Shown here piece by piece: positions 1 to 11,427 of a stretch of DNA of 11,436 bases; positions within the stretch are counted from its first letter, which is position 1, and each line of letters starts with the position of its first letter. The stretch is from a virus, in UHGV virus genome UHGV-1406243; one strand, 5' to 3'. The translations under genes were made by a program, and so were the position numbers. The notes beneath the pieces are model-generated. The model worked only from the letters and a program-made list of their open reading frames with translations. It made no database searches and had not been told where the DNA came from.

Positions 1-9
1 ATAACAGCA
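1..9. repeat. 9-bp direct repeat ATAACAGCA, identical to 11428..11436; candidate att core or target duplication
   Basis: Exact 9-mer at both window edges. Too short to be significant alone and may reflect how the window was cut. Confidence 0.3.
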
Positions 10-95
10 TTTTATCATTTAGTGTTTTTTGCTGTTTCATAATGTTTCAGGCTGTGCATTATGTTTTTGATTATCAACAGATTTGTGATTTTCCT

Positions 96-161
96 TGTTC
101 CAGCTTGTTTCACGTTGTAGCCCTTTGTGCAACGATCGGTGTAGTCACTGGTGTAGTCACT
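96..161. repeat. attL-side arm region: TTGTTCCA..CACGTTGT followed by tandem 12-mers GGTGTAGTCACT x2 (138..161); imperfect direct copy at 11299..11355
   Basis: CGGTGTAGTCACTGGTGTAGTCA is read directly at 137..159 and again at 11331..11353 in the same orientation, each preceded by a TTGTTCCA/CGTTGT motif. Candidate integrase arm-type binding sites. Confidence 0.5.
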
Positions 162-184
162 TTTTCGTAAAGAGGGGGTAAAAC

Positions 185-1399
185 GTGAGCAGAGCAATGA
201 ACAAACTGAGCGATACCTTGCTAAGGAAACTTCATGGTAAGCCAGCGGAGAAAAACACGTTTTATAGTGATGGCGGAAACCTGAGCGTGAAATATTTAAC
301 ATCAGGGAAATTGACCTGGTATTTCACATACAGGGCCGGAACGGGAAGGGAGACACGACCCGAACGCATTAAGCTGGGAAGTTATCCTGATCTGAGCCTG
401 AAAGCAGCCAGGGAAAAAGCCGCACAGTGTCGCACATGGCTGGCTGAGGGGAAAAATCCACGTCATGAGATGAATTACACCGTACAGGAAGCGTTAAAGC
501 CCGTAACGGTTGGCGATGCGCTCACCTACTGGCTTGAGTATTACGTAAAGGAAAACCGCGTGGATTATATCGCCCTGAAAAGGCGACTTAATAATCACGT
601 AATACAGCAGATTGGTGCTATGCCGCTGGATAAATGCGAGCTACGGCACTGGCTGGCCTGTTTTGACCAGGTGGTAAAGCGAACGCCTGTTACTGCCGGA
701 TTCGTGCTACAGGCGTGCAAACAGGCGCTTAAGTTCTGCCGTAGGCGGCGCTATGCAATCAGCAACGTTCTGGACGATCTGAACGTTGCGGACGTTGGGA
801 AAAAACCGGATATAAGCGAACGTGTCTTAAGTAACAAAGAACTTGGCGAATTATTGCAGGCACTGGACAAAAAAATATTCTCCCCTTACTACGTCGCGTT
901 AATCCGCCTCCTGATTGTCTTCGGAGCCAGAACGGTAGAACTGAGGTTATCGGAGATCGGGGAGTGGGATTTTACGGAAATGCTATGGACCGTTCCGAAG
1001 GAGCACAGCAAAACGAAGGTCGCAATATTCCGGCCCATACCGGAAGCGATCCTGCCGTTCGTCACGCAGCTGGTGGAGCAGAACAGGCACACGGGCTTAT
1101 TGCTGGGGGAAGTGAAACAGGAGGCCAGCGTATCGCAGTATGGAAGATTAGCGCACAGGAGGCTTAATCACCCTCACTGGTCACTGCATGACATCCGGCG
1201 CACCTTTACAACCATGCTGAACGATTTAGGCGTTGATCCGCATGTCGTGGAGCAGCTTACAGGCCACCAGATGCCAGGAATGCAGCGAGTTTATAATCAT
1301 TCCCGTTATCTGTTTTCAGTATGCGCATCTAGCGAATCACTCTTTAAAGAGCGAGAAAAAAGGCATGGAACAATATTTTATGCCTTTGTATTAACATGA
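185..1399 (+). CDS. int: Tyrosine recombinase / site-specific integrase, P4-type
   Basis: 404-aa ORF. The N-terminus (LRKLHGKPAEKNTFYSDGGNLSVKY..LGSYPDLSLKAAREKA) matches the P4-integrase arm-binding domain pattern. The C-terminus carries HDIRRTF..LGH..VYNHSRY catalytic-type motifs (His-x-x-Arg and terminal Tyr). GTG start at 185 is 5 nt after GAGGGGG; an alternative ATG lies at 197. Confidence 0.9.
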   Translation: MSRAMNKLSDTLLRKLHGKPAEKNTFYSDGGNLSVKYLTSGKLTWYFTYRAGTGRETRPERIKLGSYPDLSLKAAREKAAQCRTWLAEGKNPRHEMNYTVQEALKPVTVGDALTYWLEYYVKENRVDYIALKRRLNNHVIQQIGAMPLDKCELRHWLACFDQVVKRTPVTAGFVLQACKQALKFCRRRRYAISNVLDDLNVADVGKKPDISERVLSNKELGELLQALDKKIFSPYYVALIRLLIVFGARTVELRLSEIGEWDFTEMLWTVPKEHSKTKVAIFRPIPEAILPFVTQLVEQNRHTGLLLGEVKQEASVSQYGRLAHRRLNHPHWSLHDIRRTFTTMLNDLGVDPHVVEQLTGHQMPGMQRVYNHSRYLFSVCASSESLFKEREKRHGTIFYAFVLT

Positions 1400-1456
1400 A
1401 TTTAAAAGATTTTATTCTTACTGTTTCATTTTCTGTAAATCATATATCCTCAGTAT

Positions 1457-1486
1457 TTGACATTCATCACTCTAGCGGGAACAATA
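1457..1486 (+). promoter_or_regulatory. Putative sigma70 promoter for alpA (perfect -35 TTGACA at 1457..1462, weak -10 near 1480..1486)
   Basis: Consensus TTGACA hexamer is read directly; the downstream -10 is only approximate (AACAAT/ACAATA). The TTG at 1457 that opens the 89-aa ORF in the track is part of this hexamer. Confidence 0.35.
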
Positions 1487-1537
1487 CGACACAATAAGAC
1501 ACCTGATGACTCTTTAAGAAACGAAAGGGGGGCAATA

Positions 1538-1726
1538 GTGTTAAGCACTGATCGGTTTATACGTGAAAAAGAATGCGAAAAACTAACCGGCCTTAGCCGT
1601 ACGTGTCGCTACCGCCTGGAAAAGGCCGGACAATTCCCATCACGTCGTAAACTTGGCGGTCGTTCCGTTGGCTGGTCTTTATCCGAGGTTCTGGCCTGGA
1701 AGGATAGCTGCAAGGCAGTTCATTAA
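1538..1726 (+). CDS. alpA: AlpA-family excisionase / transcriptional regulator (prophage CP4-57 regulatory protein family)
   Basis: The sequence DRFIREKECEKLTGLSRTCRYRLEKAGQFPSRRKLGGRSVGWSLSEVLAWK fits the AlpA/Xis MerR-like winged-helix pattern (hxxEVxxxTGLSRSTIYRLxxxGxFPxPxKLGxRxVxWxxSEVxxW). Start chosen at GTG 1538, 6 nt after AAAGGGGGG, because the longer ORF start at 1457 lies inside the promoter. Confidence 0.8.
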   Translation: MLSTDRFIREKECEKLTGLSRTCRYRLEKAGQFPSRRKLGGRSVGWSLSEVLAWKDSCKAVH

Positions 1727-1872
1727 TCACGCTGGCGGCACGCAGCCGCCACACATCAATCATCTGAACACAGAGCTATAACCATGAAGATTGAATATAC
1801 GCCAGAACGTGGGCGGGGATTCGTTCGCCCTGGTGAAACTGAAAAACAACAAAATTGGGGTTTTTCAGGTAT

Positions 1873-1901
1873 AAAAAAAGCGGCCCCGAAATGGAGCCGC
1901 C
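1873..1901 (-). terminator. Rho-independent terminator (bidirectional-looking hairpin GCGGCCCC-gaaat-GGAGCCGC flanked by an A-run and a weak T-run)
   Basis: On the minus strand the stem is followed by TTTTTTT (complement of A 1873..1879). It would end leftward transcripts from the repressor-side promoter before they reach alpA and int. Confidence 0.5.
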
Positions 1902-1995
1902 TTTCTGAACAGATAACCCGCTGCGCCGTTTGTGTGTGTGATCCCAAACATAAGCACGGGGATGATAGCCGTTATCAGGCTGGTGGGCAATGCAA

Positions 1996-2184
1996 TCAGT
2001 CTGGTTCAGTTCGTTGCCATACCTGCAATGAGCGCTTTTCCCTGTACTCTTTAAGGAATTGCTCAAGGGCAAAAGCACATGGCGCGAATCTTTCTGATTC
2101 ATGCTCTATCTTTCTGCGCCGTCTTTTCCGTGCCGGTGATAATGTTTTGGTCAATTCTTTATCGGTCATTGTGTTGTCCTGCAT
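1996..2184 (-). CDS. Hypothetical small basic protein (62 aa), possibly co-transcribed with the RHH gene
   Basis: ORF on the same strand and immediately downstream of the RHH gene, upstream of the minus-strand terminator. No convincing Shine-Dalgarno; arginine-rich stretch RKRRRRK. Confidence 0.3.
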   Translation of the reverse strand: MQDNTMTDKELTKTLSPARKRRRRKIEHESERFAPCAFALEQFLKEYREKRSLQVWQRTEPD

Positions 2185-2226
2185 AGCAATGCGCCGTAAT
2201 ACCTTACACCACGGCGCTGATGGTGA

Positions 2227-2406
2227 TTACTCTGGTTCTTTGGCCTTGCGCCGCTGGCGATATTCAACTTCTCGTTTTAATGCCGCAGTAACAAATTGCC
2301 CCGTACTTTCGCCAGGCATTTTTACCGCCTCAACATTGTTCATAACTTCATGCGGAACCCTTGCCGCAACGGTTTGTGATTTTGCGTTTACCGCTTTTGT
2401 CGCCAT
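2227..2406 (-). CDS. Ribbon-helix-helix (Arc/CopG/MetJ-like) transcriptional repressor, 59 aa; absent from the ORF track (below its length cutoff)
   Basis: Hand translation of the minus strand gives MATKAVNAKSQTVAARVPHEVMNNVEAVKMPGESTGQFVTAALKREVEYRQRRKAKEPE. It has an N-terminal beta-strand (VAARVP), helix A, a G-x-S/T turn (PGESTGQ) and helix B. GAGGGG lies 8-9 nt upstream of the ATG. The gene is divergent from the plus-strand operon, with operator palindromes in between. Confidence 0.6.
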   Translation of the reverse strand: MATKAVNAKSQTVAARVPHEVMNNVEAVKMPGESTGQFVTAALKREVEYRQRRKAKEPE

Positions 2407-2456
2407 GTGGTGTACCCCTCATAAAAAACAAATGCAGTATGCAGGAAAAAAAATAA

Positions 2457-2508
2457 GTGTTCAACACTTGACGTGTTTAACACCTGGGTTTAAATTGGTG
2501 TTCAACAC
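2457..2508. promoter_or_regulatory. Divergent promoter/operator region: three copies of the near-palindrome GTGTT(C/T)AACAC (2457..2467, 2473..2483, 2498..2508), overlapping a TTGACG -35 (2468..2473) and TAAATT -10 (2491..2496) for the rightward operon
   Basis: Repeats are read directly. The arms GTGTT/AACAC are inverted repeats, typical of dimeric repressor operators. The position between the divergent RHH gene and the rightward operon fits a genetic switch. Confidence 0.55.
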
Positions 2509-2605
2509 CTTGTTGGCGCAAGGTGCAGAAACGACGAAACCCGGCAGTGCGCTAACACTAACCGGGCTTCTAACCACCAACGATAGCGAAAGTATCGAGG
2601 TAGCT

Positions 2606-2806
2606 ATGAGAAATCATACCACACACCCGCAAGGGCGGGACTCGCACAACCTGAATAAATACATCTGGCGTTTTATCGCCCTGAGCACGGCACAACCGCG
2701 CGTGATTACCATTGAGGCCACCAGCGAACAGGAAGCACGCCAGCAATCTCCGGCTGGCTGCGTGATGGTATTTGCTGCCCGTATTCGTCAGGGGGTAGGC
2801 TTATGA
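2606..2806 (+). CDS. Small protein (66 aa), tentatively Icd-like host cell division inhibitor family; first gene of the rightward operon
   Basis: ATG 2606 follows GAGG by 5 nt. Product: MRNHTTHPQGRDSHNLNKYIWRFIALSTAQPRVITIEATSEQEARQQSPAGCVMVFAARIRQGVGL. The family assignment is from memory of similar satellite and cryptic-prophage proteins and is uncertain. The stop overlaps the next start (ATGA). Confidence 0.6.
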   Translation: MRNHTTHPQGRDSHNLNKYIWRFIALSTAQPRVITIEATSEQEARQQSPAGCVMVFAARIRQGVGL

Positions 2807-3033
2807 GCCAGGAAATCACACTACAACAGGCAGCAGAACGCGCCCACCAAATCGAAGTTATTTGCGCACTGGCAGAGGATTACCCTGGCATGATGACCGA
2901 CAGCGAATCAGGGGCAATCATCGGCTTACTTAAACGCCTTAGCGGTGAGGTCTGCGTATTCCTGAGCGATGAACAGGAAAGAAGAACGCTTATTTCTAAC
3001 GAAAAAAAATGCGGAGGGGTACATGTGCAATAA
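2803..3033 (+). CDS. Hypothetical protein (76 aa)
   Basis: ATGA overlap with the upstream gene (translational coupling); same strand within a compact operon. Confidence 0.6.
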   Translation: MSQEITLQQAAERAHQIEVICALAEDYPGMMTDSESGAIIGLLKRLSGEVCVFLSDEQERRTLISNEKKCGGVHVQ

Positions 3034-3244
3034 AACCACACCGGACGCAGCCGCCGCCGCGCTCACTACGCTGATGCACGCGCTTATTGATATTTCTGTT
3101 ATTGCTGACAGGGCGCATAAACACGCAGCCAGAGAATCAGAATGCATCTTCCATTTAGCATTTGTGCAGCTAAAAGCCGATCAGGCACTGGATAAGGCCG
3201 GAAAAATTATCATGGCTGATGTGCAGGAGGTGCACCATGCATAA
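3023..3244 (+). CDS. Hypothetical protein (73 aa)
   Basis: ATG 3023 is preceded by GGAGGGG (3012..3018). In frame with the 91-aa ORF in the track, whose upstream extension lacks an RBS. Overlaps neighbours on both sides. Confidence 0.55.
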   Translation: MCNKTTPDAAAAALTTLMHALIDISVIADRAHKHAARESECIFHLAFVQLKADQALDKAGKIIMADVQEVHHA

Positions 3245-3602
3245 TCTGTCAATTTCTGACCTTAACAGCATTCAGTTTGATGAGAAATTTACCGGGCAGT
3301 TGCTGGTCAATGTGGAGAACGGGCGCATAGTGCGTAATTATCACCTGCCGGATGGTGCAATTGCCGGAAGCGTTGAAGCATTGCTGGAACTGGCGGAACG
3401 TGCGCGACTGATTAAGCCGTCAACGAGCCATCACGATGATGATCTGCATTTTACCGGATGTATGGTGAGTCACTACGAAAACGGCGTCGAGGTATCCTGT
3501 GAACGGCTGCGTGATGATTGCTGTTTCGGCACACTGCCGGAATTTATCGAGTTGCTGACCAGTTGCGGTTATCAGGTCATTCAGGGGGGTAAACATGCGT
3601 GA
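3237..3602 (+). CDS. Hypothetical protein (121 aa)
   Basis: ATG 3237 is preceded by AGGAGG (3225..3230). The 127-aa ORF start at 3219 lacks an RBS. Confidence 0.65.
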   Translation: MHNLSISDLNSIQFDEKFTGQLLVNVENGRIVRNYHLPDGAIAGSVEALLELAERARLIKPSTSHHDDDLHFTGCMVSHYENGVEVSCERLRDDCCFGTLPEFIELLTSCGYQVIQGGKHA

Positions 3603-3861
3603 TGATCGTTTTAATTCCCTGAAACAGGAATGTGATATTTACCACGAAACAATAGACCGCGCATTTCTTGCACTTTCTCACAGTGAAAACATGCTGGAAA
3701 TATTGCGCATATGGCTTGAAACACTTGGCGACAATGAACGCGACAAACAAAAATCAAGAATTGCCACGGCATTAATAACGCTTCTTGAGCCTGTAATAAT
3801 GGAACTGCAAGAAATAGATCTATTGCACGACAGATATAAAGAACAGCACACCGGAGAATAA
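3595..3861 (+). CDS. Hypothetical protein (88 aa)
   Basis: ATG 3595 is preceded by GGGGGG; 8-nt overlap with the upstream gene. Confidence 0.65.
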   Translation: MRDDRFNSLKQECDIYHETIDRAFLALSHSENMLEILRIWLETLGDNERDKQKSRIATALITLLEPVIMELQEIDLLHDRYKEQHTGE

Positions 3862-3866
3862 AAATA

Positions 3867-4166
3867 ATGAAACTTAAATATTCTGGCTTAACTGCCAGTG
3901 GCAACACTCACCCTAAATTTACGCGCGGCGATATTTACCGCGACCAGTACGGCGGCACGGTAATGATTAAGGGCGTGGAAGAACGGCGCGTAACCTACCG
4001 CCGTGAAGGTTACGAATATGATTGCGTGATGCCTGTTTATCAGTTCCGGCGTGATTTTTCTCTGGTACAGACCGCGCCGCATAACGTGTCCACCAGCAAC
4101 GCCAGGGCACGGGCAAACATCCAGAAGCTGAAAACCATGATTAACGGATTCAGGGGTAAAAAATGA
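3867..4166 (+). CDS. Hypothetical protein (99 aa)
   Basis: ATG 3867 is preceded by GGAG. Its stop overlaps the primase start (ATGA at 4163..4166). Confidence 0.7.
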   Translation: MKLKYSGLTASGNTHPKFTRGDIYRDQYGGTVMIKGVEERRVTYRREGYEYDCVMPVYQFRRDFSLVQTAPHNVSTSNARARANIQKLKTMINGFRGKK

Positions 4167-5917
4167 AACTGGCACCGAACGTAAAACAGCAGTCACGCGG
4201 CATAAAACACAAAGAAACAGAAGTCATTATTTTTGCGGGTAGTGATGCCTGGTCACACGCAAAACAATGGCAGGAACATGACGCGCGTATGGCCGGAGAT
4301 AATGAGCCTCCTGTGTGGCTTGGGGAGCAGCAGTTATCCGAACTGGATAAGCTGCAAATTGTGCCGGAAGGCAGAAAATCCGTGCGCATATTCAGGGCCG
4401 GATATCTTGCGCCAGTAATGATAAAGGCGATTGGTCAGAAGCTGGCGGCGGCAGGCGTACAGGATGCAAATTTTTACCCTGATGGTATGCACGGTCAGAA
4501 GGTGGAGAACTGGCGCGAATATCTGGCCCGTGAGCGCCAGAATCTTTCTGATGGTCTGGTCATTGAGCTTCCGGTAAAGCAAAAGGCGCAACTTTCGCAG
4601 ATGGCGGACAGTGAGCGCGCGCAGCTGCTTGCCGATCGCTTTGATGGCGTTTGCGTACATCCTGAAAGTGAAATCGTTCACGTATGGCGCGGCGGGGTAT
4701 GGTGTCCGGTCAGCACAATGGAACTTAGCCGCGAAATGGTGGCGATCTATTCAGAGCACAGGGCCACTTTCAGCAAGCGCGTAATCAATAACGCCGTGGA
4801 AGCGTTAAAAGTTATTGCCGAACCAATGGGCGAGCCGTCCGGCGATTTGTTGCCGTTCGCCAATGGTGCGCTTGACCTGAAAACGGGGGAATTTTCCCCG
4901 CACACGCCGGAGAACTGGATCACCACGCACAACGGCATTGAGTACACGCCACCAGCACCAGGGGAGAACATCCGCGATAACGCGCCAAACTTTCATAAAT
5001 GGCTTGAGCACGCAGCCGGAAAAGACCCGCGCAAGATGATGCGTATATGTGCCGCGCTGTACATGATTATGGCGAACCGGTACGACTGGCAGATGTTTAT
5101 TGAGGCCACCGGAGACGGCGGGAGCGGTAAAAGTACATTCACACACATAGCCAGCCTTCTGGCAGGGAAACAGAACACGGTAAGCGCTGAAATGACATCG
5201 CTTGATGATGCTGGTGGACGTGCGCAGGTTGTCGGGAGTCGTCTTATCGTCCTGGCTGACCAGCCGAAATATACAGGCGAAGGAACGGGCATCAAGAAAA
5301 TCACGGGCGGTGACCCCGTGGAAATTAACCCGAAATACGAAAAGCGTTTCACGGCGGTAATCAGGGCGGTGGTGCTGGCGACCAACAATAACCCGATGAT
5401 ATTCACCGAACGGGCCGGAGGTGTGGCACGTCGTCGCGTGATTTTCCGTTTCGACAATATCGTCAGTGAGGCCGAAAAAGACAGGGAGCTACCGGAAAAG
5501 ATCGCGGCTGAAATCCCTGTCATTATCCGCCGATTGCTGGCGAACTTTACCGACCCTGAGAAGGCACGGGCTTTACTACTGGAACAGCGTGACGGTGATG
5601 AAGCTCTGGCAATAAAGCAACAGACGGATCCGGTTATTGAGTTTTGCCAGTTCCTGAATTTTCTGGAGGAAGCACGCGGCCTGATGATGGGCGGCGGTGG
5701 CGATTCAGTGAAGTACACGACCAGAAACAGCCTTTACCGCGTCTATCTGGCGTTTATGGCGTACGCAGGCAGGAGCAAACCGCTAAACGTAAATGACTTT
5801 GGCAAGGCTATGAAGCCAGCCGCGAAAGTTTACGGACATGAATATATTACGCGGAAAGTTAAGGGAGTAACGCAGACTAACGCAATAACAACAGACGAGT
5901 GCGACGCGTTTTTATAA
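4163..5917 (+). CDS. Replication initiator: P4 alpha-like primase/helicase (D5-type SF3 NTPase domain)
   Basis: 584-aa ORF. Walker A GDGGSGKST and Walker B-like RLIVLADQ are read directly in the C-terminal half. Gene size and the iteron array immediately downstream match satellite Pri-Rep / P4 alpha proteins. The N-terminal primase domain was not confirmed motif by motif. Confidence 0.85.
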   Translation: MKLAPNVKQQSRGIKHKETEVIIFAGSDAWSHAKQWQEHDARMAGDNEPPVWLGEQQLSELDKLQIVPEGRKSVRIFRAGYLAPVMIKAIGQKLAAAGVQDANFYPDGMHGQKVENWREYLARERQNLSDGLVIELPVKQKAQLSQMADSERAQLLADRFDGVCVHPESEIVHVWRGGVWCPVSTMELSREMVAIYSEHRATFSKRVINNAVEALKVIAEPMGEPSGDLLPFANGALDLKTGEFSPHTPENWITTHNGIEYTPPAPGENIRDNAPNFHKWLEHAAGKDPRKMMRICAALYMIMANRYDWQMFIEATGDGGSGKSTFTHIASLLAGKQNTVSAEMTSLDDAGGRAQVVGSRLIVLADQPKYTGEGTGIKKITGGDPVEINPKYEKRFTAVIRAVVLATNNNPMIFTERAGGVARRRVIFRFDNIVSEAEKDRELPEKIAAEIPVIIRRLLANFTDPEKARALLLEQRDGDEALAIKQQTDPVIEFCQFLNFLEEARGLMMGGGGDSVKYTTRNSLYRVYLAFMAYAGRSKPLNVNDFGKAMKPAAKVYGHEYITRKVKGVTQTNAITTDECDAFL

Positions 5918-5929
5918 TTTTTTGTAATT

Positions 5930-6160
5930 GCTGTCTACCCTGTCTACCTGAGTAAAGAAAAATACATTTAATTCAGTGCATTAAGTTAGGTAGATAGCCT
6001 TTTTTTACTGTCTACCCACTATCTACCCTCTCTACCTGATTTTACCTGAATCAGACAGGGAGGTAGACACGGGGTAGATAGTGGATAAAAGCACTCTACC
6101 CCGCTGAAAGCCGCGCCATTACTGGTATGAGGGCCACTAAGGTAGATAAGGTAGACAAGG
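5930..6160. other. Putative origin of replication: iteron array of YCTACC / GGTAGAY motifs with dyad organisation; duplicated at 6379..6609
   Basis: At least 11 copies of the core (T/C)CTACC. Direct copies lie at 5933..6048 (TGTCTACCCTGTCTACCTG, TGTCTACCC, ATCTACCC, TCTACCTG) and inverted copies at 6061..6160 (GGTAGACAC, GGTAGATAG, GGTAGATAAGGTAGACAAGG), centred near 6055. It sits directly downstream of the primase gene. Confidence 0.55.
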
Positions 6161-6205
6161 GGAGGCACAACTCAAAACTTTTTAAACGAGGGGGTAAAAA
6201 TAAAT

Positions 6206-6262
6206 ATGCACACTTCAGGGAAATTTAATAAATCACTCAAAATGACTTTGGCAAGGCTATGA
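6206..6262 (+). pseudogene. Truncated duplicate of the start of the 92-aa gene (18 codons, then stop), created by the tandem duplication
   Basis: Same RBS and first 12 codons (MHTSGKFNKSLK) as the gene at 6655; the reading frame then runs into the duplicated primase 3' fragment and stops. Confidence 0.4.
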
Positions 6263-6654
6263 AGCCAGCCGCGAAAGTTTACGGACATGAATATATTACG
6301 CGGAAAGTTAAGGGAGTAACGCAGACTAACGCAATAACAACAGACGAGTGCGACGCGTTTTTATAATTTTTTGTAATTGCTGTCTACCCTGTCTACCTGA
6401 GTAAAGAAAAATACATTTAATTCAGTGCATTAAGTTAGGTAGATAGCCTTTTTTTACTGTCTACCCACTATCTACCCTCTCTACCTGATTTTACCTGAAT
6501 CAGACAGGGAGGTAGACACGGGGTAGATAGTGGATAAAAGCACTCTACCCCGCTGAAAGCCGCGCCATTACTGGTATGAGGGCCACTAAGGTAGATAAGG
6601 TAGACAAGGGGAGGCACAACTCAAAACTTTTTAAACGAGGGGGTAAAAATAAAT

Positions 6655-6933
6655 ATGCACACTTCAGGGAAATTTAATAAATCACTCAAAAAACGCAGAG
6701 ACAGAACAGAACCGAAATATCGCGCGTTAGACATGACAGAGCACGCTTTAAAGGTGGCAATCAGAACGATAGACCGCCACGCGGGGGAAGGATACGCGAA
6801 AGCACATCCCGAACTGATAAGCGCATTCATGACCACGACGGCGGCAAATTTTGCCACGCTGACAGAGCGGGAGATTGCCGAAGCGGAACAGGTAACAACC
6901 ATCAACGTTAAAACCGGAGAGGTGGAATCATGA
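6655..6933 (+). CDS. Hypothetical protein (92 aa)
   Basis: Strong RBS GAGGGGGT upstream; stop overlaps the ssb start (ATGA). Confidence 0.65.
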   Translation: MHTSGKFNKSLKKRRDRTEPKYRALDMTEHALKVAIRTIDRHAGEGYAKAHPELISAFMTTTAANFATLTEREIAEAEQVTTINVKTGEVES

Positions 6934-7352
6934 CAGCACAGATAGCAGCTTACGGGCGGCTGGTGGACGACCCGCAGGTAAAACAGACCAGCAAGGGCAC
7001 ACCGATGACGCTGGCGCGTATGGCGGTCCCCCTTCCGTGCAGCCAGGCAGATGACGGAACGGCGACGATGTGGTTATCCGTCCTGGCATTTGGCAGACAG
7101 GCCGAAGCACTGGAAAGGCACCGCAAGGGTGAACTCCTGAGCGTGGCGGGTAACATGCAGATCAGCCAGTGGACTGGGCAGAACGGAGAAACGCGGCAGG
7201 GCTGGCAGGTTATCGCAGACAGTGTAATCAGTGCGCGAACGGCGCGACTGGGCGGCAAAAAAGGTCAACAGGGCCAGGCTACTGACGCGCTGAACAGGGC
7301 AAAACAACAGGCGGGGAATGATGATCCGTACGGGGATAACATACCGTTTTAA
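6930..7352 (+). CDS. ssb: Single-stranded DNA-binding protein (short SSB with acidic C-terminal tip)
   Basis: OB-fold pattern comparable to E. coli SSB (IAAYGRLVDDPQVKQT..WLSVLAFGRQAEALERHRKGELLSVAGNMQISQWTGQNGETRQGWQV) and C-terminal DDPYGDNIPF matching the conserved D-D-D-I-P-F tail. Confidence 0.85.
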   Translation: MTAQIAAYGRLVDDPQVKQTSKGTPMTLARMAVPLPCSQADDGTATMWLSVLAFGRQAEALERHRKGELLSVAGNMQISQWTGQNGETRQGWQVIADSVISARTARLGGKKGQQGQATDALNRAKQQAGNDDPYGDNIPF

Positions 7353-7368
7353 GCGACGAGTGACAGAA

Positions 7369-7390
7369 GCCGGAGCAATCCGGCTTTTTT
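7369..7390 (+). terminator. Rho-independent terminator after ssb (GCCGGA-gcaa-TCCGGC + TTTTTT)
   Basis: Hairpin and T-run are read directly. A near-identical hairpin recurs at 9810..9832. Confidence 0.6.
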
Positions 7391-7470
7391 ACGGGTCCTC
7401 CTGGCGGGGTGGGCCTGAACACGGGGCGGGAAGCGCGGAAAAAAGCGCATTTTTGTGATTTTATCGTCAT
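7388..7470 (+). other. Degenerate cos-like sequence (cosQ-like TTTACGGGTCCT, then ACGGGGCGGGAAGCGCGG in place of the lambda cosN core)
   Basis: Shares TTTACGGGTCCT and ACGGGGCGG with the cos at 9830..9900, but the 12-nt cohesive-end core is disrupted. Likely a relic or a divergent site. Confidence 0.35.
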
Positions 7471-7565
7471 CATCATCATGAGCGTAATTTATTGTTTTTA
7501 ATTGTTTTGATGCAAAAAAGATGATGGTTGTGGTTAATTTTCGTTCGACATCTTTGCAGGCAGAT

Positions 7566-7606
7566 AAAAAAGCCCGATAAGGTCAGAGGTGGCTTATCGG
7601 GCTTTT
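7566..7606. terminator. Bidirectional rho-independent terminator (10-bp perfect stem GCCCGATAAG / CTTATCGGGC, A-run upstream, T-run downstream)
   Basis: Read directly: AAAAAAGCCCGATAAGgtcagaggtggCTTATCGGGCTTTTG. Confidence 0.6.
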
Positions 7607-7683
7607 GCATATGAGGCTTTTTGGTGCACTGACACACATGAGCGGGATCATCATTTCATAATTTGCAACACAACTCAATATCA

Positions 7684-7732
7684 TTGCACAAAACGCAATC
7701 CTGATTATAATCAGAGCTGGATGAACATCCAG
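7684..7732 (+). promoter_or_regulatory. Candidate promoter of the capsid operon (-35 TTGCAC 7684..7689, 16-bp spacer, perfect -10 TATAAT 7706..7711) with a 7-bp inverted repeat CTGGATG-AA-CATCCAG (7717..7732) just downstream
   Basis: Hexamers and palindrome are read directly; the location between the upstream terminator and the RBS of the 68-aa gene fits an operator-controlled promoter. Confidence 0.45.
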
Positions 7733-7767
7733 TTATGATTTTTTAAGTCGAAGAGGAATTTCTTACT

Positions 7768-7974
7768 ATGGCTGAAGAGAAAAAAGGCGGTGTTTCGGTG
7801 TACATAAGCCCCGAAATCGTGGAGGTGCTCAAGCAGCGCCACAAAAAAAACTATGAGGCTGGCGTGGCGGCTGGACTGGATCCGCTGATGACGCCGGAGC
7901 CGTCGATAGGTTCACTTGTACGCTCTTATTTACTTGCGGCGCTTGGGATGCATAAAAATTATGGGGGTGAATAA
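7768..7974 (+). CDS. Hypothetical protein (68 aa), translationally coupled to the major capsid gene
   Basis: RBS AGAGGA upstream; its stop TAA overlaps the capsid ATG (TAATG). No recognisable similarity by eye. Confidence 0.65.
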   Translation: MAEEKKGGVSVYISPEIVEVLKQRHKKNYEAGVAAGLDPLMTPEPSIGSLVRSYLLAALGMHKNYGGE

Positions 7975-9029
7975 TGGCAGGCAAAGCAACGGCACTTAAC
8001 ACTAACCAGCTTTTCATGTACCTGAATCGCGGGGATATTGCGGATTTTAAATTCAGCCCTCTGTTTACTACGCTGTTTTTCCCGAACGTGGCGACATTCA
8101 GCACGCAAAACATCATGCTGGATACCCTGGACATTGAAGAAGTCACCATGTCGGCGTTTTGTTCGCCTATGGTGGGTAGCCAGGTTCAGCGCGATAAAGG
8201 GTACGAAACCAGCACGATTAAACCTGGCTACATGAAGCCAAAGCACGAAATCGATCCAACGAAAACCATCATGCGCATGGCTGGAGAAGATCCGGCACAG
8301 CTTAACGACCCTACCTATCGCCGTATGCGCCTGATTACTGGCAATATGCGCCGCCAGATAAACGCCATAAAAGCGCGCGTGGAATGGCTGGCGGTAAATG
8401 CGGTAACGACCGGAAAAAACATCATTGAGGGCGAAGGCATAGAGCGCTATGAAATCGACTGGAAGATACCGGAAAAAAACATCATAGAGCAGGCCGACGG
8501 GAAAAAATGGTCAGCGCAGGACAAAGAAACCCACGATCCAATCTATGATATCGAACTATACGCCGATCAGGCTGGTTGCCCCGCAAACGTCATGATTATG
8601 GGCGCTGAGGTATGGCGAACGTTACGCAGCTTTAAAAAATTCCGTGAGCTGTACGATCTTTCCCGTGGTTCAGAATCCGCCGCCGAACTGGCCTGTAAAA
8701 ACCTGGGCGAAGTGGTGAGCTTTAAAGGCTATCTTGGTGATCTGGCCCTTATCGTCTATTCCGGCAAATACACTGACAGCGATGGTACCGAAAAATATTT
8801 CCTTGAGCCTGATTTGCTGGTCCTAGGTAACACCAACAATAAAGGGCTGGTGGCCTATGGTGCGATAATGGATCAGGAAGCGGTAAGAACGGGCGCAACA
8901 CAAAACATGTTTTACCCGAAAAACTGGATTGAGGACGGCGATCCGGCGATTGAGTACGTGCAGACACACAGTGCACCGCAGCCGGTACCGGCAGATATTC
9001 GCAAATTTGTTACCGTCAAAATTGGTTAA
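7974..9029 (+). CDS. Major capsid protein, phage lambda gpE family
   Basis: Multiple collinear blocks match lambda gpE as I recall it: FKFSPLFTTLFF vs FKFDPLFLRLFF; PGYMKPKHEIDP vs PGYVKPKHEVNP; EDPAQLNDPTYRRMR vs EDPQNLADPAYRRRR; RGSESAAELACKNLGEVVSFKGYLGDLALIVYSGKY vs RGSNSELETAVKDLGKAVSYKGMYGDVAIVVYSGQY; YPKNWIEDGDPAIEY..SAP vs YPKNWVTTGDPAREF..SAP. Length 351 aa vs 341 aa. Confidence 0.92.
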   Translation: MAGKATALNTNQLFMYLNRGDIADFKFSPLFTTLFFPNVATFSTQNIMLDTLDIEEVTMSAFCSPMVGSQVQRDKGYETSTIKPGYMKPKHEIDPTKTIMRMAGEDPAQLNDPTYRRMRLITGNMRRQINAIKARVEWLAVNAVTTGKNIIEGEGIERYEIDWKIPEKNIIEQADGKKWSAQDKETHDPIYDIELYADQAGCPANVMIMGAEVWRTLRSFKKFRELYDLSRGSESAAELACKNLGEVVSFKGYLGDLALIVYSGKYTDSDGTEKYFLEPDLLVLGNTNNKGLVAYGAIMDQEAVRTGATQNMFYPKNWIEDGDPAIEYVQTHSAPQPVPADIRKFVTVKIG

Positions 9030-9041
9030 CGGGGGGATTCT

Positions 9042-9377
9042 ATGGACACTCCATACATTGAGTTATTTGCAGGCAGTCAGCGGGTCGCCACGACGCTGGT
9101 ACATTTTGCCGCTGATGCTGGCGTTATTCAGGAATTTACCCCGCTGATGCTGGCAGACAATGGCGAGTTTAAGCCGTGGGATGGTCAGGAATCTGGCAAG
9201 GCTGTTTATCTGACCTCGTACCCTGTGGACACGTCAAAGCAGAAATCAGCACAGTGTTACAAGACGGGGATTTTCAATATTGCCGCCGTTAACTGGCCTG
9301 AGAGCGTCGACACCGATGCGAAAAAATGCGCCGCCTTTGCGGGTTCCGGCGTATCCGTTCAGCCGCTGGCCCGATAA
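9042..9377 (+). CDS. Head decoration protein, phage lambda gpD family
   Basis: 111 aa vs 110 aa for lambda D. Blocks TPLMLADNGEFKPWDG vs TPLMLDTSSRKLVAWDG and YKTGIFNIAAVNWPESVDTDAKKCAAFAGSGVSVQ vs [44 protein letters not shown] upstream. Confidence 0.88.
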   Translation: MDTPYIELFAGSQRVATTLVHFAADAGVIQEFTPLMLADNGEFKPWDGQESGKAVYLTSYPVDTSKQKSAQCYKTGIFNIAAVNWPESVDTDAKKCAAFAGSGVSVQPLAR

Positions 9378-9389
9378 GCAGGGGGAACG

Positions 9390-9803
9390 ATGGCAACGAA
9401 TGAAAGCGTCATGACGCTACCGCTGGCGAGTAAATTTAAAGCCGAAGCGCGGGCAATGGCTGACAGAGGTTTATCAACCTACGAGGCCGTATATCAACTC
9501 AACAAACTGGAAGAGCAGGACAAGCCGCGCGCTGATGCGATTATGGCGCTTCATGAACATAACGACTATCAGCCGCTGTTACGTGCAATGGCAAACGTGC
9601 CATGTATTAGCGTCGATAATGCTCGTGAAATCCTGAACATGACCATAGAGCAGGAGCGCCCAAAGGTTGCGCCGGAGCTTACCGCAGCCTTTGAAAACTT
9701 TATGGACATGCACAGCCCGAAAGCCGTATCACCCGGCATGGCATACGACGGCAGAAACCAGGGCGATGAAGGCGACGTCGATCGCATACTGAAAACCATC
9801 TGA
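9390..9803 (+). CDS. Hypothetical protein (137 aa), last gene of the capsid module
   Basis: RBS GGGGG upstream; followed by a terminator. No recognisable motif by eye. Confidence 0.7.
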   Translation: MATNESVMTLPLASKFKAEARAMADRGLSTYEAVYQLNKLEEQDKPRADAIMALHEHNDYQPLLRAMANVPCISVDNAREILNMTIEQERPKVAPELTAAFENFMDMHSPKAVSPGMAYDGRNQGDEGDVDRILKTI

Positions 9804-9809
9804 CATAAG

Positions 9810-9832
9810 GCCGGAGAAATCCGGCTTTTTTT
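9810..9832 (+). terminator. Rho-independent terminator (GCCGGA-gaaa-TCCGGC + TTTTTTT), abutting the cosQ-like sequence
   Basis: Read directly; near-identical to the terminator at 7369..7390. Confidence 0.6.
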
Positions 9833-9912
9833 ACGGGTCCTTTCCGGCATATGGACCCGTTACGGGGCGGCGACCTCGCGGGTTTTCGCTATTTATGACG
9901 TTTTTCCGTGAA
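9830..9912 (+). other. Lambda-type cos site: cosQ-like TTTACGGGTCCTTTCCGG, cosN with the 12-nt cohesive-end sequence GGGCGGCGACCT (9864..9875), and a proximal cosB with one R3-like element
   Basis: 40 contiguous bases at 9858..9897 (GTTACGGGGCGGCGACCTCGCGGGTTTTCGCTATTTATGA) match the junction of the lambda right and left ends as I recall it, and TTTACGGGTCCTTTCCGG matches the lambda right-end sequence. It lies about 90 bp upstream of the Nu1-like gene, as in lambda. Confidence 0.8.
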
Positions 9913-9965
9913 GGTGACACCACCACCACTTGATTAATATTTAACCATGCAGTTAAGGTAACATT

Positions 9966-10400
9966 ATGATTGATAAAGCTTGTTTTGTAAGTCAGCAGGA
10001 AATAGCTGAACATTTCAAGGTTAACAGAACCACTATTCGCGCATGGACCAAACAGGGGATGCCGTATCTTAATGCGGATCGCGGAAAGTCTGGCGGTTAT
10101 CACATCGGGCATACATTGCTTTGGTCTTCAGGTAAAAGCCGTCTTGAGACCATCAGATATCACGTAGAAACCAGTGCGCTGGAAAAAATTATGTTTGCCA
10201 GGCTGCTTTCATCTGAGCGTGACGAGTACTCCAGTGAAGAAACAGAACATCGATTTGATGAAGGTTTGCAGATTTACGGCTATTCACCGGAAGATGTGAG
10301 CAAGGCACGAAATAAAATGGCTGGCTTTCTGGCTGGGTGGCGTCATGCCATAAGCGTTCGCCGTGCCAGCATGGAGCAATCAGCCGATACAGAACAGTAA
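9966..10400 (+). CDS. Terminase small subunit homologue, lambda Nu1-like N-terminal DNA-binding domain with a divergent, shorter C-terminal part
   Basis: VSQQEIAEHFKVNRTTIRAWTKQGMPYLNADRGKSGG aligns with lambda Nu1 VNKKQLADIFGASIRTIQNWQEQGMPVLRGGGKGNEV. 144 aa vs 181 aa; I could not align the C-terminal half to Nu1. Sits directly downstream of the cos site. Confidence 0.8.
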   Translation: MIDKACFVSQQEIAEHFKVNRTTIRAWTKQGMPYLNADRGKSGGYHIGHTLLWSSGKSRLETIRYHVETSALEKIMFARLLSSERDEYSSEETEHRFDEGLQIYGYSPEDVSKARNKMAGFLAGWRHAISVRRASMEQSADTEQ

Positions 10401-10453
10401 AGCCGATAACTTGTTAATCACTCGCAGCAATGCATGTGATTTGTGCACACTTT

Positions 10454-10568
10454 CGGTTAACTGGTTCGATGTCCGGTTTTAGTGTCTGTTTTTTGCGCAT
10501 GTCCGGTTCATGGAAAGCATGTTTTTATATTTTTCATATGGTTAACTTGCAGAGAAACCGGACATGGA
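10454..10568 (-). repeat. cosB-like repeat set belonging to the inverted cos: three ATGTCCGGTT elements (10470..10479 and 10499..10508 direct, 10557..10566 inverted) separated by an AT-rich stretch (10520..10545), plus a GGTTAAC duplication
   Basis: Repeats are read directly. Their spacing from the inverted cosN (about 40, 100 and 135 bp) and the AT-rich spacer resemble the lambda R3-I1-R2-R1 layout, but with a different R sequence (TCCGGTT vs lambda CGTTTCC). Confidence 0.45.
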
Positions 10569-10570
10569 TC

Positions 10571-10654
10571 CCGAAAAATTTTCATAAATAGTGAAAACGC
10601 GCGAGGTCGCCGCCCCGTAACGGGCCATAATTCCAGGAAGGACCCGACGACACC
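10571..10654 (-). other. Second lambda-type cos site in inverted orientation (reverse complement of cosN AGGTCGCCGCCC at 10604..10615, with cosQ-like and proximal cosB flanks)
   Basis: The reverse complement of 10571..10654 reads GGTCCTTCCTGG..GTTACGGGGCGGCGACCTCGCGCGTTTTCACTATTTATGAAAATTTTTCGG, matching the lambda cos junction on both sides of cosN. It is an inverted copy of the cos at 9830..9912. Confidence 0.75.
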
Positions 10655-10679
10655 AGACTATCAGAGCGATGGGGGCACA

Positions 10680-10961
10680 ATGACAGAAGCCGAACTACTG
10701 GGATTAATCCGCCGCGTTACCGGAATCAGCCAGCAGCATGACGAACAGGCCACGCAGCCGGACAGCGTGACCGCCGAAAATTACGCGCGTGTGGTTGCTG
10801 AGGTGATGCGCCGTGATGGTATCCAGCTTAATGATGTGGATATGCGCAACATACGGATCCGCGTTCTTGAAATGCTGGCCTACAATCGCCGCGTGGCACT
10901 GTATCGGGAAACGGAGAAAATTACGTACCACTGGAAGAAGCCGGAGCGGTTACGGCGTTAA
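10680..10961 (+). CDS. Hypothetical protein (93 aa)
   Basis: ATG 10680 follows GGGGG by about 5 nt. It is in frame with the 159-aa ORF in the track, whose upstream extension runs through the inverted cos site and is unlikely to be coding. Confidence 0.55.
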   Translation: MTEAELLGLIRRVTGISQQHDEQATQPDSVTAENYARVVAEVMRRDGIQLNDVDMRNIRIRVLEMLAYNRRVALYRETEKITYHWKKPERLRR

Positions 10962-10967
10962 CGAGTA

Positions 10968-11012
10968 GCGACATACCGTGACGGAGAGTGACAACCAGTG
11001 ACACGCCGTGAC
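10968..11012 (+). repeat. Phased array of GTGAC pentamers at exact 10-bp spacing (10978, 10988, 10998, 11008, plus GCGAC at 10968)
   Basis: Read directly: aGCGACataccGTGACggagaGTGACaaccaGTGACacgccGTGACaaaag. Further GTGACC / GGTCAT motifs and the near-palindrome TGGTCATAATGACCA (11122..11136) follow downstream. Confidence 0.6.
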
Positions 11013-11298
11013 AAAAGACGGTTTAACCGTTAATTAAAAATTGACGGGATTTTGTGCTTTCCGGACGACGTGACCAACGTCATTTTTTAGCGAAAAGTTC
11101 TGATTAAGGTCATTGTCTGAATGGTCATAATGACCACTCCTACAAAACAGGTAAAGCCCACCAGCCTGATTAACAGTTAACCGGAAAAAAAATCCGGTAG
11201 CCCCGTTATGGGGATCCCCATATCAACATTAACGCCCCTCATGAATTAGCGCGCTTCCCCCTGGAAAGATGACCCGCCTGTATATTTCTTGTGTCTAT

Positions 11299-11355
11299 TT
11301 GTTCCACGTTGTTTCATACAGTGCACCGAACGGTGTAGTCACTGGTGTAGTCATT
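11299..11355. repeat. attR-side arm region: TTGTTCCACGTTGTTTCA followed by tandem 12-mers GGTGTAGTCACT / GGTGTAGTCATT (11332..11355); direct copy of 96..161
   Basis: CGGTGTAGTCACTGGTGTAGTCA is read at 11331..11353, identical to 137..159. Confidence 0.5.
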
Positions 11356-11427
11356 TTGCGATTTATGGCACTTTTTGTAGTGCAAATCATTTAATTAAAT
11401 CAATGCGTTAAGTGAAATTAGTTATAT

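Follow-up and report, generated by a model that had tools for sequence, protein, structure and literature searches.

Facing cos sites in an EcCICFT073-type phage-inducible chromosomal island: a predicted Rpp-dependent cos1 and an inverted cos2 resembling a common phage cos

EcCICFT073 is the prototype Gram-negative phage-inducible chromosomal island (PICI) and sits between roxA and phoQ in CFT073. Two packaging sites, 'CFT073 cos.1' and 'CFT073 cos.2', are printed in Fig. S5 of Fillol-Salom et al. 2018 (PMC6092414). Each is functional when cloned on a plasmid. Deletion of cos1 strongly reduces lambda- and phi80-mediated transfer, deletion of cos2 slightly increases transfer, and deletion of both abolishes it (PMC6092414). 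The capsid and decoration genes of the island are dispensable for interference, and the packaged DNA is phage-sized (PMC6092414). The reason for the presence of two cos sites per island is a question that was raised in the original papers.

Recognition of cos1 involves the product of c1503, RppA (redirecting phage packaging protein A), a 144-residue protein in which cos recognition depends on R21 and T22 (Fillol-Salom et al. 2019, PMC6739421). RppA has to pair with the helper TerS as a heterodimer, which Rpp does by mimicking the lambda-type DNA-binding domain (PMC6739421). The RppA-TerS heterodimer no longer recognises the phage cosB and recognises the cosB of cos1, as mapped by cosB swaps, an R21A/T22A mutant and a phi80 chimera; RppA increases the transfer of a cos1 plasmid and decreases that of phage-cos plasmids (PMC6739421). 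Even in the absence of Rpp, lambda and phi80 move a cos1 plasmid at a low level (PMC6739421, PMC6092414). Murialdo & Feiss 2022 (PMC9026076) described in these islands an N15-like, single-R cosB with the element R3-PICI at bp 48-65, including an identical 55-63 segment, and an rpp start at +102 for PICI-C. The evidence for binding of Rpp-TerS to R3-PICI is genetic rather than from footprinting.

The island, its first cos site and rppA

The DNA analysed here (the window; all 11,436 nt of UHGV virus genome UHGV-1406243) occurs in its entirety, with 100% identity, in E. coli O18:H1 CFSAN067215. The island that lies between roxA and phoQ of CFT073 matches 86% of the window length at 94% identity. 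Comparison with relatives gives an island span of approximately 11.4 kb (window 9-11405). The island carries an integrase, a primase/ori module and unidirectional genes, is within the range of about 10-15 kb and is without terL or tail genes; no large terminase, portal, tail or protease gene was found among the window ORFs. The genes at 7974-9803 are the c1499/c1500-type genes of EcCICFT073. Based on this gene content and similarity, the window can be classified as a PICI of the EcCICFT073 family. Its features are listed in Table 1.

Table 1. Features of the window. Positions with a sign are counted from the first base of the cohesive end of the respective cos site.
Feature	Position	Strand	Remarks
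Tyrosine integrase	185-1399	+	Pfam Arm-DNA-bind_3, Phage_integrase; phrog_1 (E=1.6e-66)
D5/P4-type primase-helicase (PICI replication module)	4163-5917	+	Pfam D5_N, DUF5906, Pox_D5; phrog_864 (E=1.2e-175)
SSB	6930-7352		ORF annotation
gpE-like major capsid homolog	7974-9029	+	Pfam Phage_cap_E (4.8e-52); phrog_1999/phrog_53 in the group of three genes at 7974-9803
gpD-like decoration homolog	9042-9377	+	Pfam HDPD (2.9e-17)
Scaffold-like ORF	9390-9803	+	
Terminator-like hairpin and T-run	9807-9835	+	GGCCGGAGAAATCCGGCC-type stem; RNA fold -14.4 kcal/mol, z = -4.67
cos1, cosQ	9830-9847	+	18/18 to lambda; core GGGTCCT at 9835-9841 (-30 to -24), also by pattern search
cos1, cosN	9859-9898	+	40/40 to lambda; cohesive end GGGCGGCGACCT at 9865-9876; 'CFT073 cos.1' (Fig. 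S5, PMC6092414)
CGTTTTTCCGTGAAG, earlier called R3-like	9899-9913	+	Homologue of lambda +35 to +49; I2/spacer position
R3-PICI, AGGTGACACCACCACCAC	9912-9929	+	+48 to +65, core +55 to +63; proposed RppA-TerS binding site
rppA (144 aa)	9966-10400	+	142/144 identical to CFT073 WP_000565609.1
cos2, complete	10469-10647	-	cosQ core, cosN and three R boxes
cos2, cosB	10469-10565	-	Three exact ATGTCCGGTT R boxes
R1' of cos2	10469-10478	-	+138 to +147; exact ATGTCCGGTT
R2' of cos2	10499-10508		+108 to +117; inverted; exact ATGTCCGGTT
R3' of cos2	10556-10565	-	+51 to +60; exact ATGTCCGGTT
cos2, cosN cohesive end GGGCGGCGACCT	10604-10615	-	Exact; 'CFT073 cos.2' (Fig. S5, PMC6092414)
cos2, cosQ core GGGTCCT	10639-10645	-	-30 to -24; spacing to cosN as in cos1
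Conserved 93-aa ORF downstream of cos2	10680-10961	+	phrog_1561 (E=1.1e-56); hypothetical protein in CFT073 and relatives

Two further elements flank this region. The hairpin at 9807-9828 closes the capsid-decoration-scaffold operon, and its T-run forms the 5' flank of cosQ; it is not listed by a consensus terminator scan of the window, and folding supports it. Just 3' of the 93-aa ORF, approximately 400 bp short of the island's right end, four GTGAC motifs are found at 10978-11012 with an exact 10-bp spacing (CCGTGACGGAGAGTGACAACCAGTGACACGCCGTGACAAA; TRF period 10). These repeats may be phased protein-binding sites, such as recombination arm sites.

The initial annotation of this DNA placed a lambda-type cos site with the exact 12-nt cohesive-end sequence upstream of the gene at 9966, and a pattern search of the window recovered GGGCGGCGACCT at 9865-9876 on the plus strand. 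In shuffled sequences, approximately 0.05 matches to GGGCGGCGACCT are expected by chance at one mismatch or fewer, and the window has two; even for the 12-mer alone, the match to the lambda cos is therefore not fortuitous. The lambda reference was NC_001416, and the comparison was ungapped and anchored at cosN. Window 9830-9847 is identical to lambda 48468-48485 at 18 of 18 nt (TTTACGGGTCCTTTCCGG, which includes the cosQ core GGGTCCT), and window 9859-9898 is identical to lambda 48497-34 at 40 of 40 nt, covering cosN and both flanks. The 12 bases separating these runs differ from lambda, and 68 of the 83 nt of 9830-9912 are identical overall. The alignment to the lambda cos that had been proposed as a check thus returned the match lengths given in the initial annotation, namely 40 contiguous bases around cosN and a cosQ-like stretch of 18 nt. 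The likeness of cos1 to lambda ends after about +45, and matches to the phage collection end at about +45 to +52, short of the R3 position. With respect to the features of a lambda-like cos, a cosN with symmetric flanks and a cosQ core approximately 30 bp upstream of it are present in cos1, while the R3-I1-R2-R1 cosB and a downstream full-length terS with terL are missing.

The cosB side had been described as truncated, with a single R3-like element, CGTTTTTCCGTGAAG. Neither part of this description holds. CGTTTTTCCGTGAAG aligns to lambda +35 to +49, which is the I2 position, whereas R3 occupies +49/50 to +64/65. It was ruled out as R3 by the anchored lambda alignment, by the annotated record of phage 21 (I2 +30 to +44, R3 +50 to +65, I1 +72 to +86, R2 +107 to +122, R1 +150 to +165) and by the PICI alignment. 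The sequence found at +48 to +65 is instead the PICI-specific R3-PICI (AGGTGACACCACCACCAC), identical to CFT073 at 9912-9929 and conserved among Rpp islands from E. coli, Klebsiella and Phytobacter; 25 of 27 E. coli elements contain its core CACCACCAC. No further copy of R3-PICI was found in the window, and cos1 has no recognisable I1, R2 or R1 and none of the R boxes of lambda, 21 or PhiR12. From +46 to +150, its cosB is 23-30% identical to those of lambda, 21 and PhiR12, which corresponds to random sequence. Cos1 consists of a lambda-identical cosQ and cosN, on which the helper's large terminase acts, joined to a non-phage cosB with one R3 equivalent, and this cosB is replaced rather than truncated. 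The R3-PICI assignment was reached independently here, but it was proposed earlier by Murialdo & Feiss 2022 (PMC9026076), and the window agrees with both of their values (R3-PICI at +48 to +65, rpp start at +102).

The gene downstream of cos1 had been called Nu1-like and placed about 90 bp from the site. The distance is correct, as the gene starts 90 bp past the cohesive end (9966, or +102 from its first base). The name is apt for the N-terminal winged helix of the product, which resembles Nu1, but not for the gene, which is rppA and not a small terminase gene. The protein is 98.6% identical (142/144) to the CFT073 protein and matches the RppC crystal-structure sequence (PDB 6HLK/6HN7; E=4.5e-31 with 6HLK). 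Its likeness to lambda Nu1 and phage 21 gp1 (about 30-39% identity) does not extend past the first ~70 residues: the BLASTP match to Nu1 covers residues 8-71, and Pfam Phage_Nu1 aligns to residues 8-40 alone, below the cutoff. In the annotation of the window ORFs, the protein gave no more than a weak helix-turn-helix match at its N-terminus. RppA has 144 aa, compared to 181 aa for TerS, and the C-terminal TerL-binding region is absent. The alpha2 residues R21 and T22 and the wing lysines are present in the window protein, and R21, T22, R25, K29, R39 and K41 are invariant in 13 homologs. A small terminase was ruled out by the RppC match, the identity to CFT073 RppA and the restriction of the Nu1 likeness to the N-terminus; the 144-aa protein is accordingly an Rpp.

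The site described in the initial annotation is the one printed as 'CFT073 cos.1', and the window sequences of cos1 and cos2 from -45 to +170 are the same as in the CFT073 genome with the exception of one base at -31. Outside of the cos region, the window allele is 94% identical to EcCICFT073. By this similarity, the site can be equated with the published cos1 of EcCICFT073, and 9830-9929 is likely to be cos1, the Rpp-dependent packaging site of an EcCICFT073-family PICI (probability of roughly 90%). Nothing in the window sequence speaks against this explanation.

The proposed model for packaging from cos1 is as follows. Upon induction of a lambda-, phi80- or 21-type helper, RppA would heterodimerise with the helper TerS. 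The hybrid DNA-binding domain would ignore the phage cosB and bind R3-PICI of the island, after which the TerS C-terminus would recruit TerL and cosN would be nicked to leave 12-nt GGGCGGCGACCT ends. Packaging would proceed rightwards from a concatemer, with rpp entering first, and a later cos1 (the cosQ/cosN of a later unit) would be cut once the phage-sized head was full. About four 11.4-kb units (a unit count that is itself inferred) would amount to 45.6 kb, or 94% of lambda, in agreement with the phage-sized packaged DNA that has been reported (PMC6092414). For EcCICFT073, experiments have demonstrated the steps up to nicking and the need for cos1 (PMC6092414, PMC6739421), and both would be expected to apply to the window allele. 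Because the near-identical EcCICFT073 sequence has already been studied, the prediction of packaging by a lambdoid helper terminase that was made from the window sequence was already established (PMC6092414, PMC6739421).

A second, inverted cos site and its phage counterpart

The initial annotation made no mention of a second cos site and took the first to define the ends of the packaged DNA. A second exact copy of GGGCGGCGACCT is found on the minus strand at 10604-10615, 740 bp from cos1. A 78-nt inverted repeat (82%; 9834-9911 and 10569-10646) spans both cohesive ends, and the two sites face each other across rppA. The second site is the published cos2: 'CFT073 cos.2' is the reverse complement of window ~10350-10650, with some machine-reading errors in the text version of the figure. 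As the island has this inverted and complete site (10469-10647), cos1 need not be the only site that sets the ends of particle DNA.

The cosB of cos2 contains three exact copies of ATGTCCGGTT, compared to 0.65 matches (at one mismatch or fewer) expected in the whole window. These boxes fall on the R3, R2 and R1 positions of phage 21. Cos2 was searched against the phage collection and matched Escherichia phages PhiR12_1 to PhiR12_5 at 93% over -32 to +147; in their genomes, as well as in a prophage of E. coli M3, the cos2-like sequence immediately precedes terS and terL. The similarity to PhiR12_1 is sharply bounded. The cosN-cosB module (+1 to +147) is identical at 143 of 147 positions. By segment, identity is 19/27 from -32 to -6, 37/39 from -5 to +34, 111/113 from +35 to +147 and 9/53 from +148 to +200, such that homology ends right after R1. 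The cosQ-side arm of cos2 is unlike the phage and resembles other island cos sites, being paralogous to cos1. In addition, R1' of the island is without the second half of the phage's palindromic R1. Cos2 is thus a mosaic: its left arm is of the island type, and it is joined to a phage cosN-cosB module whose boundary falls exactly after R1.

The papers describing cos2 reported no recognisable phage cosB in either island site, and compared only lambda, phi80 and CFT073 phage 4 (PMC6739421, PMC6092414). A literature search found no later paper treating cos2 and, as far as it reached, no description of cos2 as derived by copying from a common phage cos. PhiR12-type cosB and terS are found together in 1141 of 5426 complete E. 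coli genomes (21%). The PhiR12-type TerS has a Nu1-like C-terminal part (46% identity; Pfam profile positions 62-163), while the first 50-60 residues show no sequence relationship to Nu1, phage 21 gp1 or Rpp.

Related islands and the presence of two sites

Rpp relatives were taken from exact-protein look-ups, IMG/VR and E. coli genomes; scans of one-genome-per-species contigs, with a single protein and then with an alignment, returned none. The 27 E. coli elements compared are the window, CFT073, two other genomes and 23 IMG/VR contigs. All 27 have the layout of cos1 (plus strand), a central rpp or terS gene and cos2 (minus strand), with 806-939 bp between the two cosQ cores. The central gene is a full-length terS homolog in one element and rpp in the others. 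The Rpp islands of Klebsiella and Phytobacter have cos1 only.

While the cosB of cos1 is conserved in the 27 elements, that of cos2 belongs to one of three unrelated modules. Type A (motif ATGTCCGG; 13 elements, including the window) is 97% identical to the PhiR12-type phages. Type B (motif GGTTGTTGT; 13 elements) has the lambda arrangement of R3 forward, R2 inverted and R1 forward, and matches from end to end, at about 78% identity, a cosB that immediately precedes terS in an O111:NM prophage; here too, the homology stops after R1. Type C (one element) is phage 21-like, with 84% identity to PhiR5_1 and 66% (ungapped) to phage 21. For type B, the phage collection gave no match beyond cosN and megablast against a spread of E. 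coli genomes gave no informative match; the ~78% sequences were returned by a more sensitive search.

Several related elements differ from the window in their cohesive ends or central gene. In the RppB-type islands (L013, 2560-2640 and 3290-3366; L034; L035; L036), the layout and R3-PICI are kept and the flanks are conserved, but the cohesive-end position differs in sequence. Cos1 and cos2 of one such element have GTACGTGTACGC and GTAGCCATACGC, respectively, and the cos1 ends also vary between elements (GGCGGGAGCGGC, GTCTGTGGATGC). The IMG/VR contig L033 has the same variant cohesive end, GGGCGTCGACCT, at both cos1 and cos2, which suggests either that the inverted sites have undergone gene conversion or that both have adapted to one helper. 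In L019 and L021, a G-to-A change is confined to cos2. In E. coli SSGNw2 (L012, 1935-2885), rpp is replaced by a gene for a 180-aa full-length TerS homolog (35% identity to Nu1 over its whole length); the cosB of cos1 in this element has three R-like repeats (GGTGGTTTTGTTGTTTGC, GCAAACAATACACCAACC and GTTGGTGTATT), and that of cos2 is phage 21/PhiR5-like.

Outside of E. coli, three Klebsiella loci (L006-L008; 4048-8641, 8850-9614) are Rpp satellites with a single cos1. They adjoin a truncated capsid-E gene of a prophage, beyond which are lambda-like genes for head completion and tails. These satellites appear to be embedded in helpers in the manner described in bioRxiv 10.1101/2022.07.18.500453. 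A Salmonella enterica locus (L009, 758-1608) encodes an Rpp homolog (59% identity) whose gene overlaps the upstream gene and is followed by a hok/gef-type gene; no recognisable lambda-type cos was found within 200 bp upstream of it.

These comparisons suggest a possible answer to the question of why there are two cos sites. Cos1 would be the Rpp-dependent site, while cos2 would be a complete phage cos captured for a second class of helper and used independently of Rpp. This reading of a dual origin is tentative, and is given slightly less than an even chance of being correct. If so, cos2 would derive from a terminase-specificity group whose TerS binds DNA through a domain unlike that mimicked by Rpp. 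Cos1 would exploit lambda-, phi80- and 21-type helpers and cos2 of the window PhiR12-type helpers, whose TerS Rpp may be unable to capture. Rather than being a degenerate duplicate of cos1, cos2 would carry a cosB cassette that is exchanged between islands. Its origin as a neutral recombination scar appears unlikely because the layout is present in all 27 elements, every cos2 keeps cosQ, cosN and three R boxes, and there are three phage-type modules.

A consequence for packaging is that a PhiR12-type helper could use cos2 as the operative site in place of cos1. The helper would act through its own TerS without Rpp, cos2 would be cut with ends at 10604-10615, and packaging would run leftwards, in the opposite direction to that from cos1. 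The 143/147 identity to the PhiR12_1 cos followed by 9/53 right after R1, the three exact R boxes at the phage R3/R2/R1 positions and the intact cosQ core are consistent with this explanation. So are the prevalence of PhiR12-type cosB and terS (1141/5426 complete E. coli genomes), the PhiR12 TerS N-terminal domain that is unrelated in sequence to Nu1 and Rpp, and the variation of cosB modules among similar islands, each like a prophage cosB directly upstream of terS. Cos2 is also known to work on a plasmid, and both sites must be removed to abolish transfer (PMC6092414). However, the data obtained with lambda are compatible with this explanation rather than demonstrative, as deletion of cos2 raised transfer and its response to RppA was unlike that of cos1 (PMC6739421, PMC6092414), and R1' of the island does not have the second half of the palindromic phage R1. 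Use of cos2 by a PhiR12-type helper is therefore considered possible, at a little under one chance in two. If the helper were lambda, cos2 would do no more than compete weakly as a cut site within the DNA packaged from cos1, which would fit the higher transfer observed after cos2 deletion (PMC6092414).

The other alternatives to an Rpp-dependent cos1 fare far worse. If cos1 were a plain copy of a helper cos in the style of a cosmid or SaPIbov5, an unmodified terminase would suffice and the adjacent gene would be irrelevant. This would account for a cosQ and cosN identical to phage and for the low-level movement of a cos1 plasmid that lambda and phi80 support without Rpp, but it is very improbable given that phage likeness stops at about +45 to +52, before the R3 position, and that the cosB from +46 to +150 is at the random level (23-30%) with no lambda-type R boxes. 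RppA is also needed for efficient and specific packaging (PMC6739421), and the RppA and cosB-swap data have already largely refuted this explanation. That cos1 is a functionless remnant of a lambdoid prophage that has decayed, comprising a cos and a truncated Nu1 gene, would fit the dispensability of the lambda-like capsid, decoration and scaffold homologs for transfer and interference and the sharing of the Nu1 N-terminus only, but is even less probable in view of a layout and R3-PICI kept in 27 E. coli elements, Klebsiella and Phytobacter despite divergence elsewhere, the invariant DNA-contacting Rpp residues and the strong loss-of-function phenotype published for the identical sequence (PMC6092414, PMC6739421).

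With respect to cos1, the analysis rediscovers a characterised element, including the corrected position of the R3 equivalent. Its identity shows the window to be an EcCICFT073-type island that can be mobilised, and predicts both the helpers and the ends of particle DNA. Cos2 proves to be a copy, with sharp boundaries, of the cos from another lambdoid packaging module that is very common, and in related islands this position is occupied by other modules of phage type. Although the field is narrow, this result suggests a testable answer to the two-cos question, as well as a helper range and potential for spread that are broader than the lambda and phi80 experiments indicate.

Comparison with known systems

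EcCICFT073 (Fillol-Salom et al. 2018 ISME J; 2019 Mol Cell) belongs to the same family as the window, and nothing is different at cos1. The cos1-rppA-cos2 segment is identical except for 1 nt at -31 and two RppA residues, and the gene order (int, primase, SSB, capsid, decoration, rpp) is shared. The two islands are allelic variants (94% over 86%) that differ in their regulatory and accessory regions.

Lambda (cosQ-cosN-I2-R3-I1-R2-R1, with the Nu1/A terminase) shares with cos1 the 18 nt of cosQ, the 40 nt of cosN and its flanks and the spacing between them, and in both cases a gene encoding a Nu1-type winged helix lies downstream of the cos site. In contrast to lambda, cos1 is without the lambda R boxes and I1, and the downstream gene starts at +102 rather than at +191. 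RppA is without the C-terminal TerL-binding part of Nu1, and the island is without terL. By its description, the cos of phage N15 is similar to cos1 in organization, with a single R at the R3 position, no I1, R2 or R1, and a short gap to the gene (PMC9026076). The R sequence of N15 is a different one, however, and is read by the phage's own TerS and not by a satellite-helper heterodimer.

The Staphylococcus islands SaPIbov5 and SaPIbov4 are likened to the window by their description in the literature, as satellites that are packaged through a copy of the helper cos. SaPIbov4 also has two putative cos sites (PMC6092414). These islands are unrelated to the window in sequence and host, and are described without an Rpp-type specificity switch.

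The PhiR12-type phages (PV340549-PV340554) and the matching E. coli prophages have the closest known counterparts of cos2, with 97% identity in the cosN-cosB module and R3, spacer, R2 and R1 in register. In the phages, this module is followed by terS and terL, whereas in the island cos2 faces the 3' end of rppA and has an island-type cosQ-side arm.
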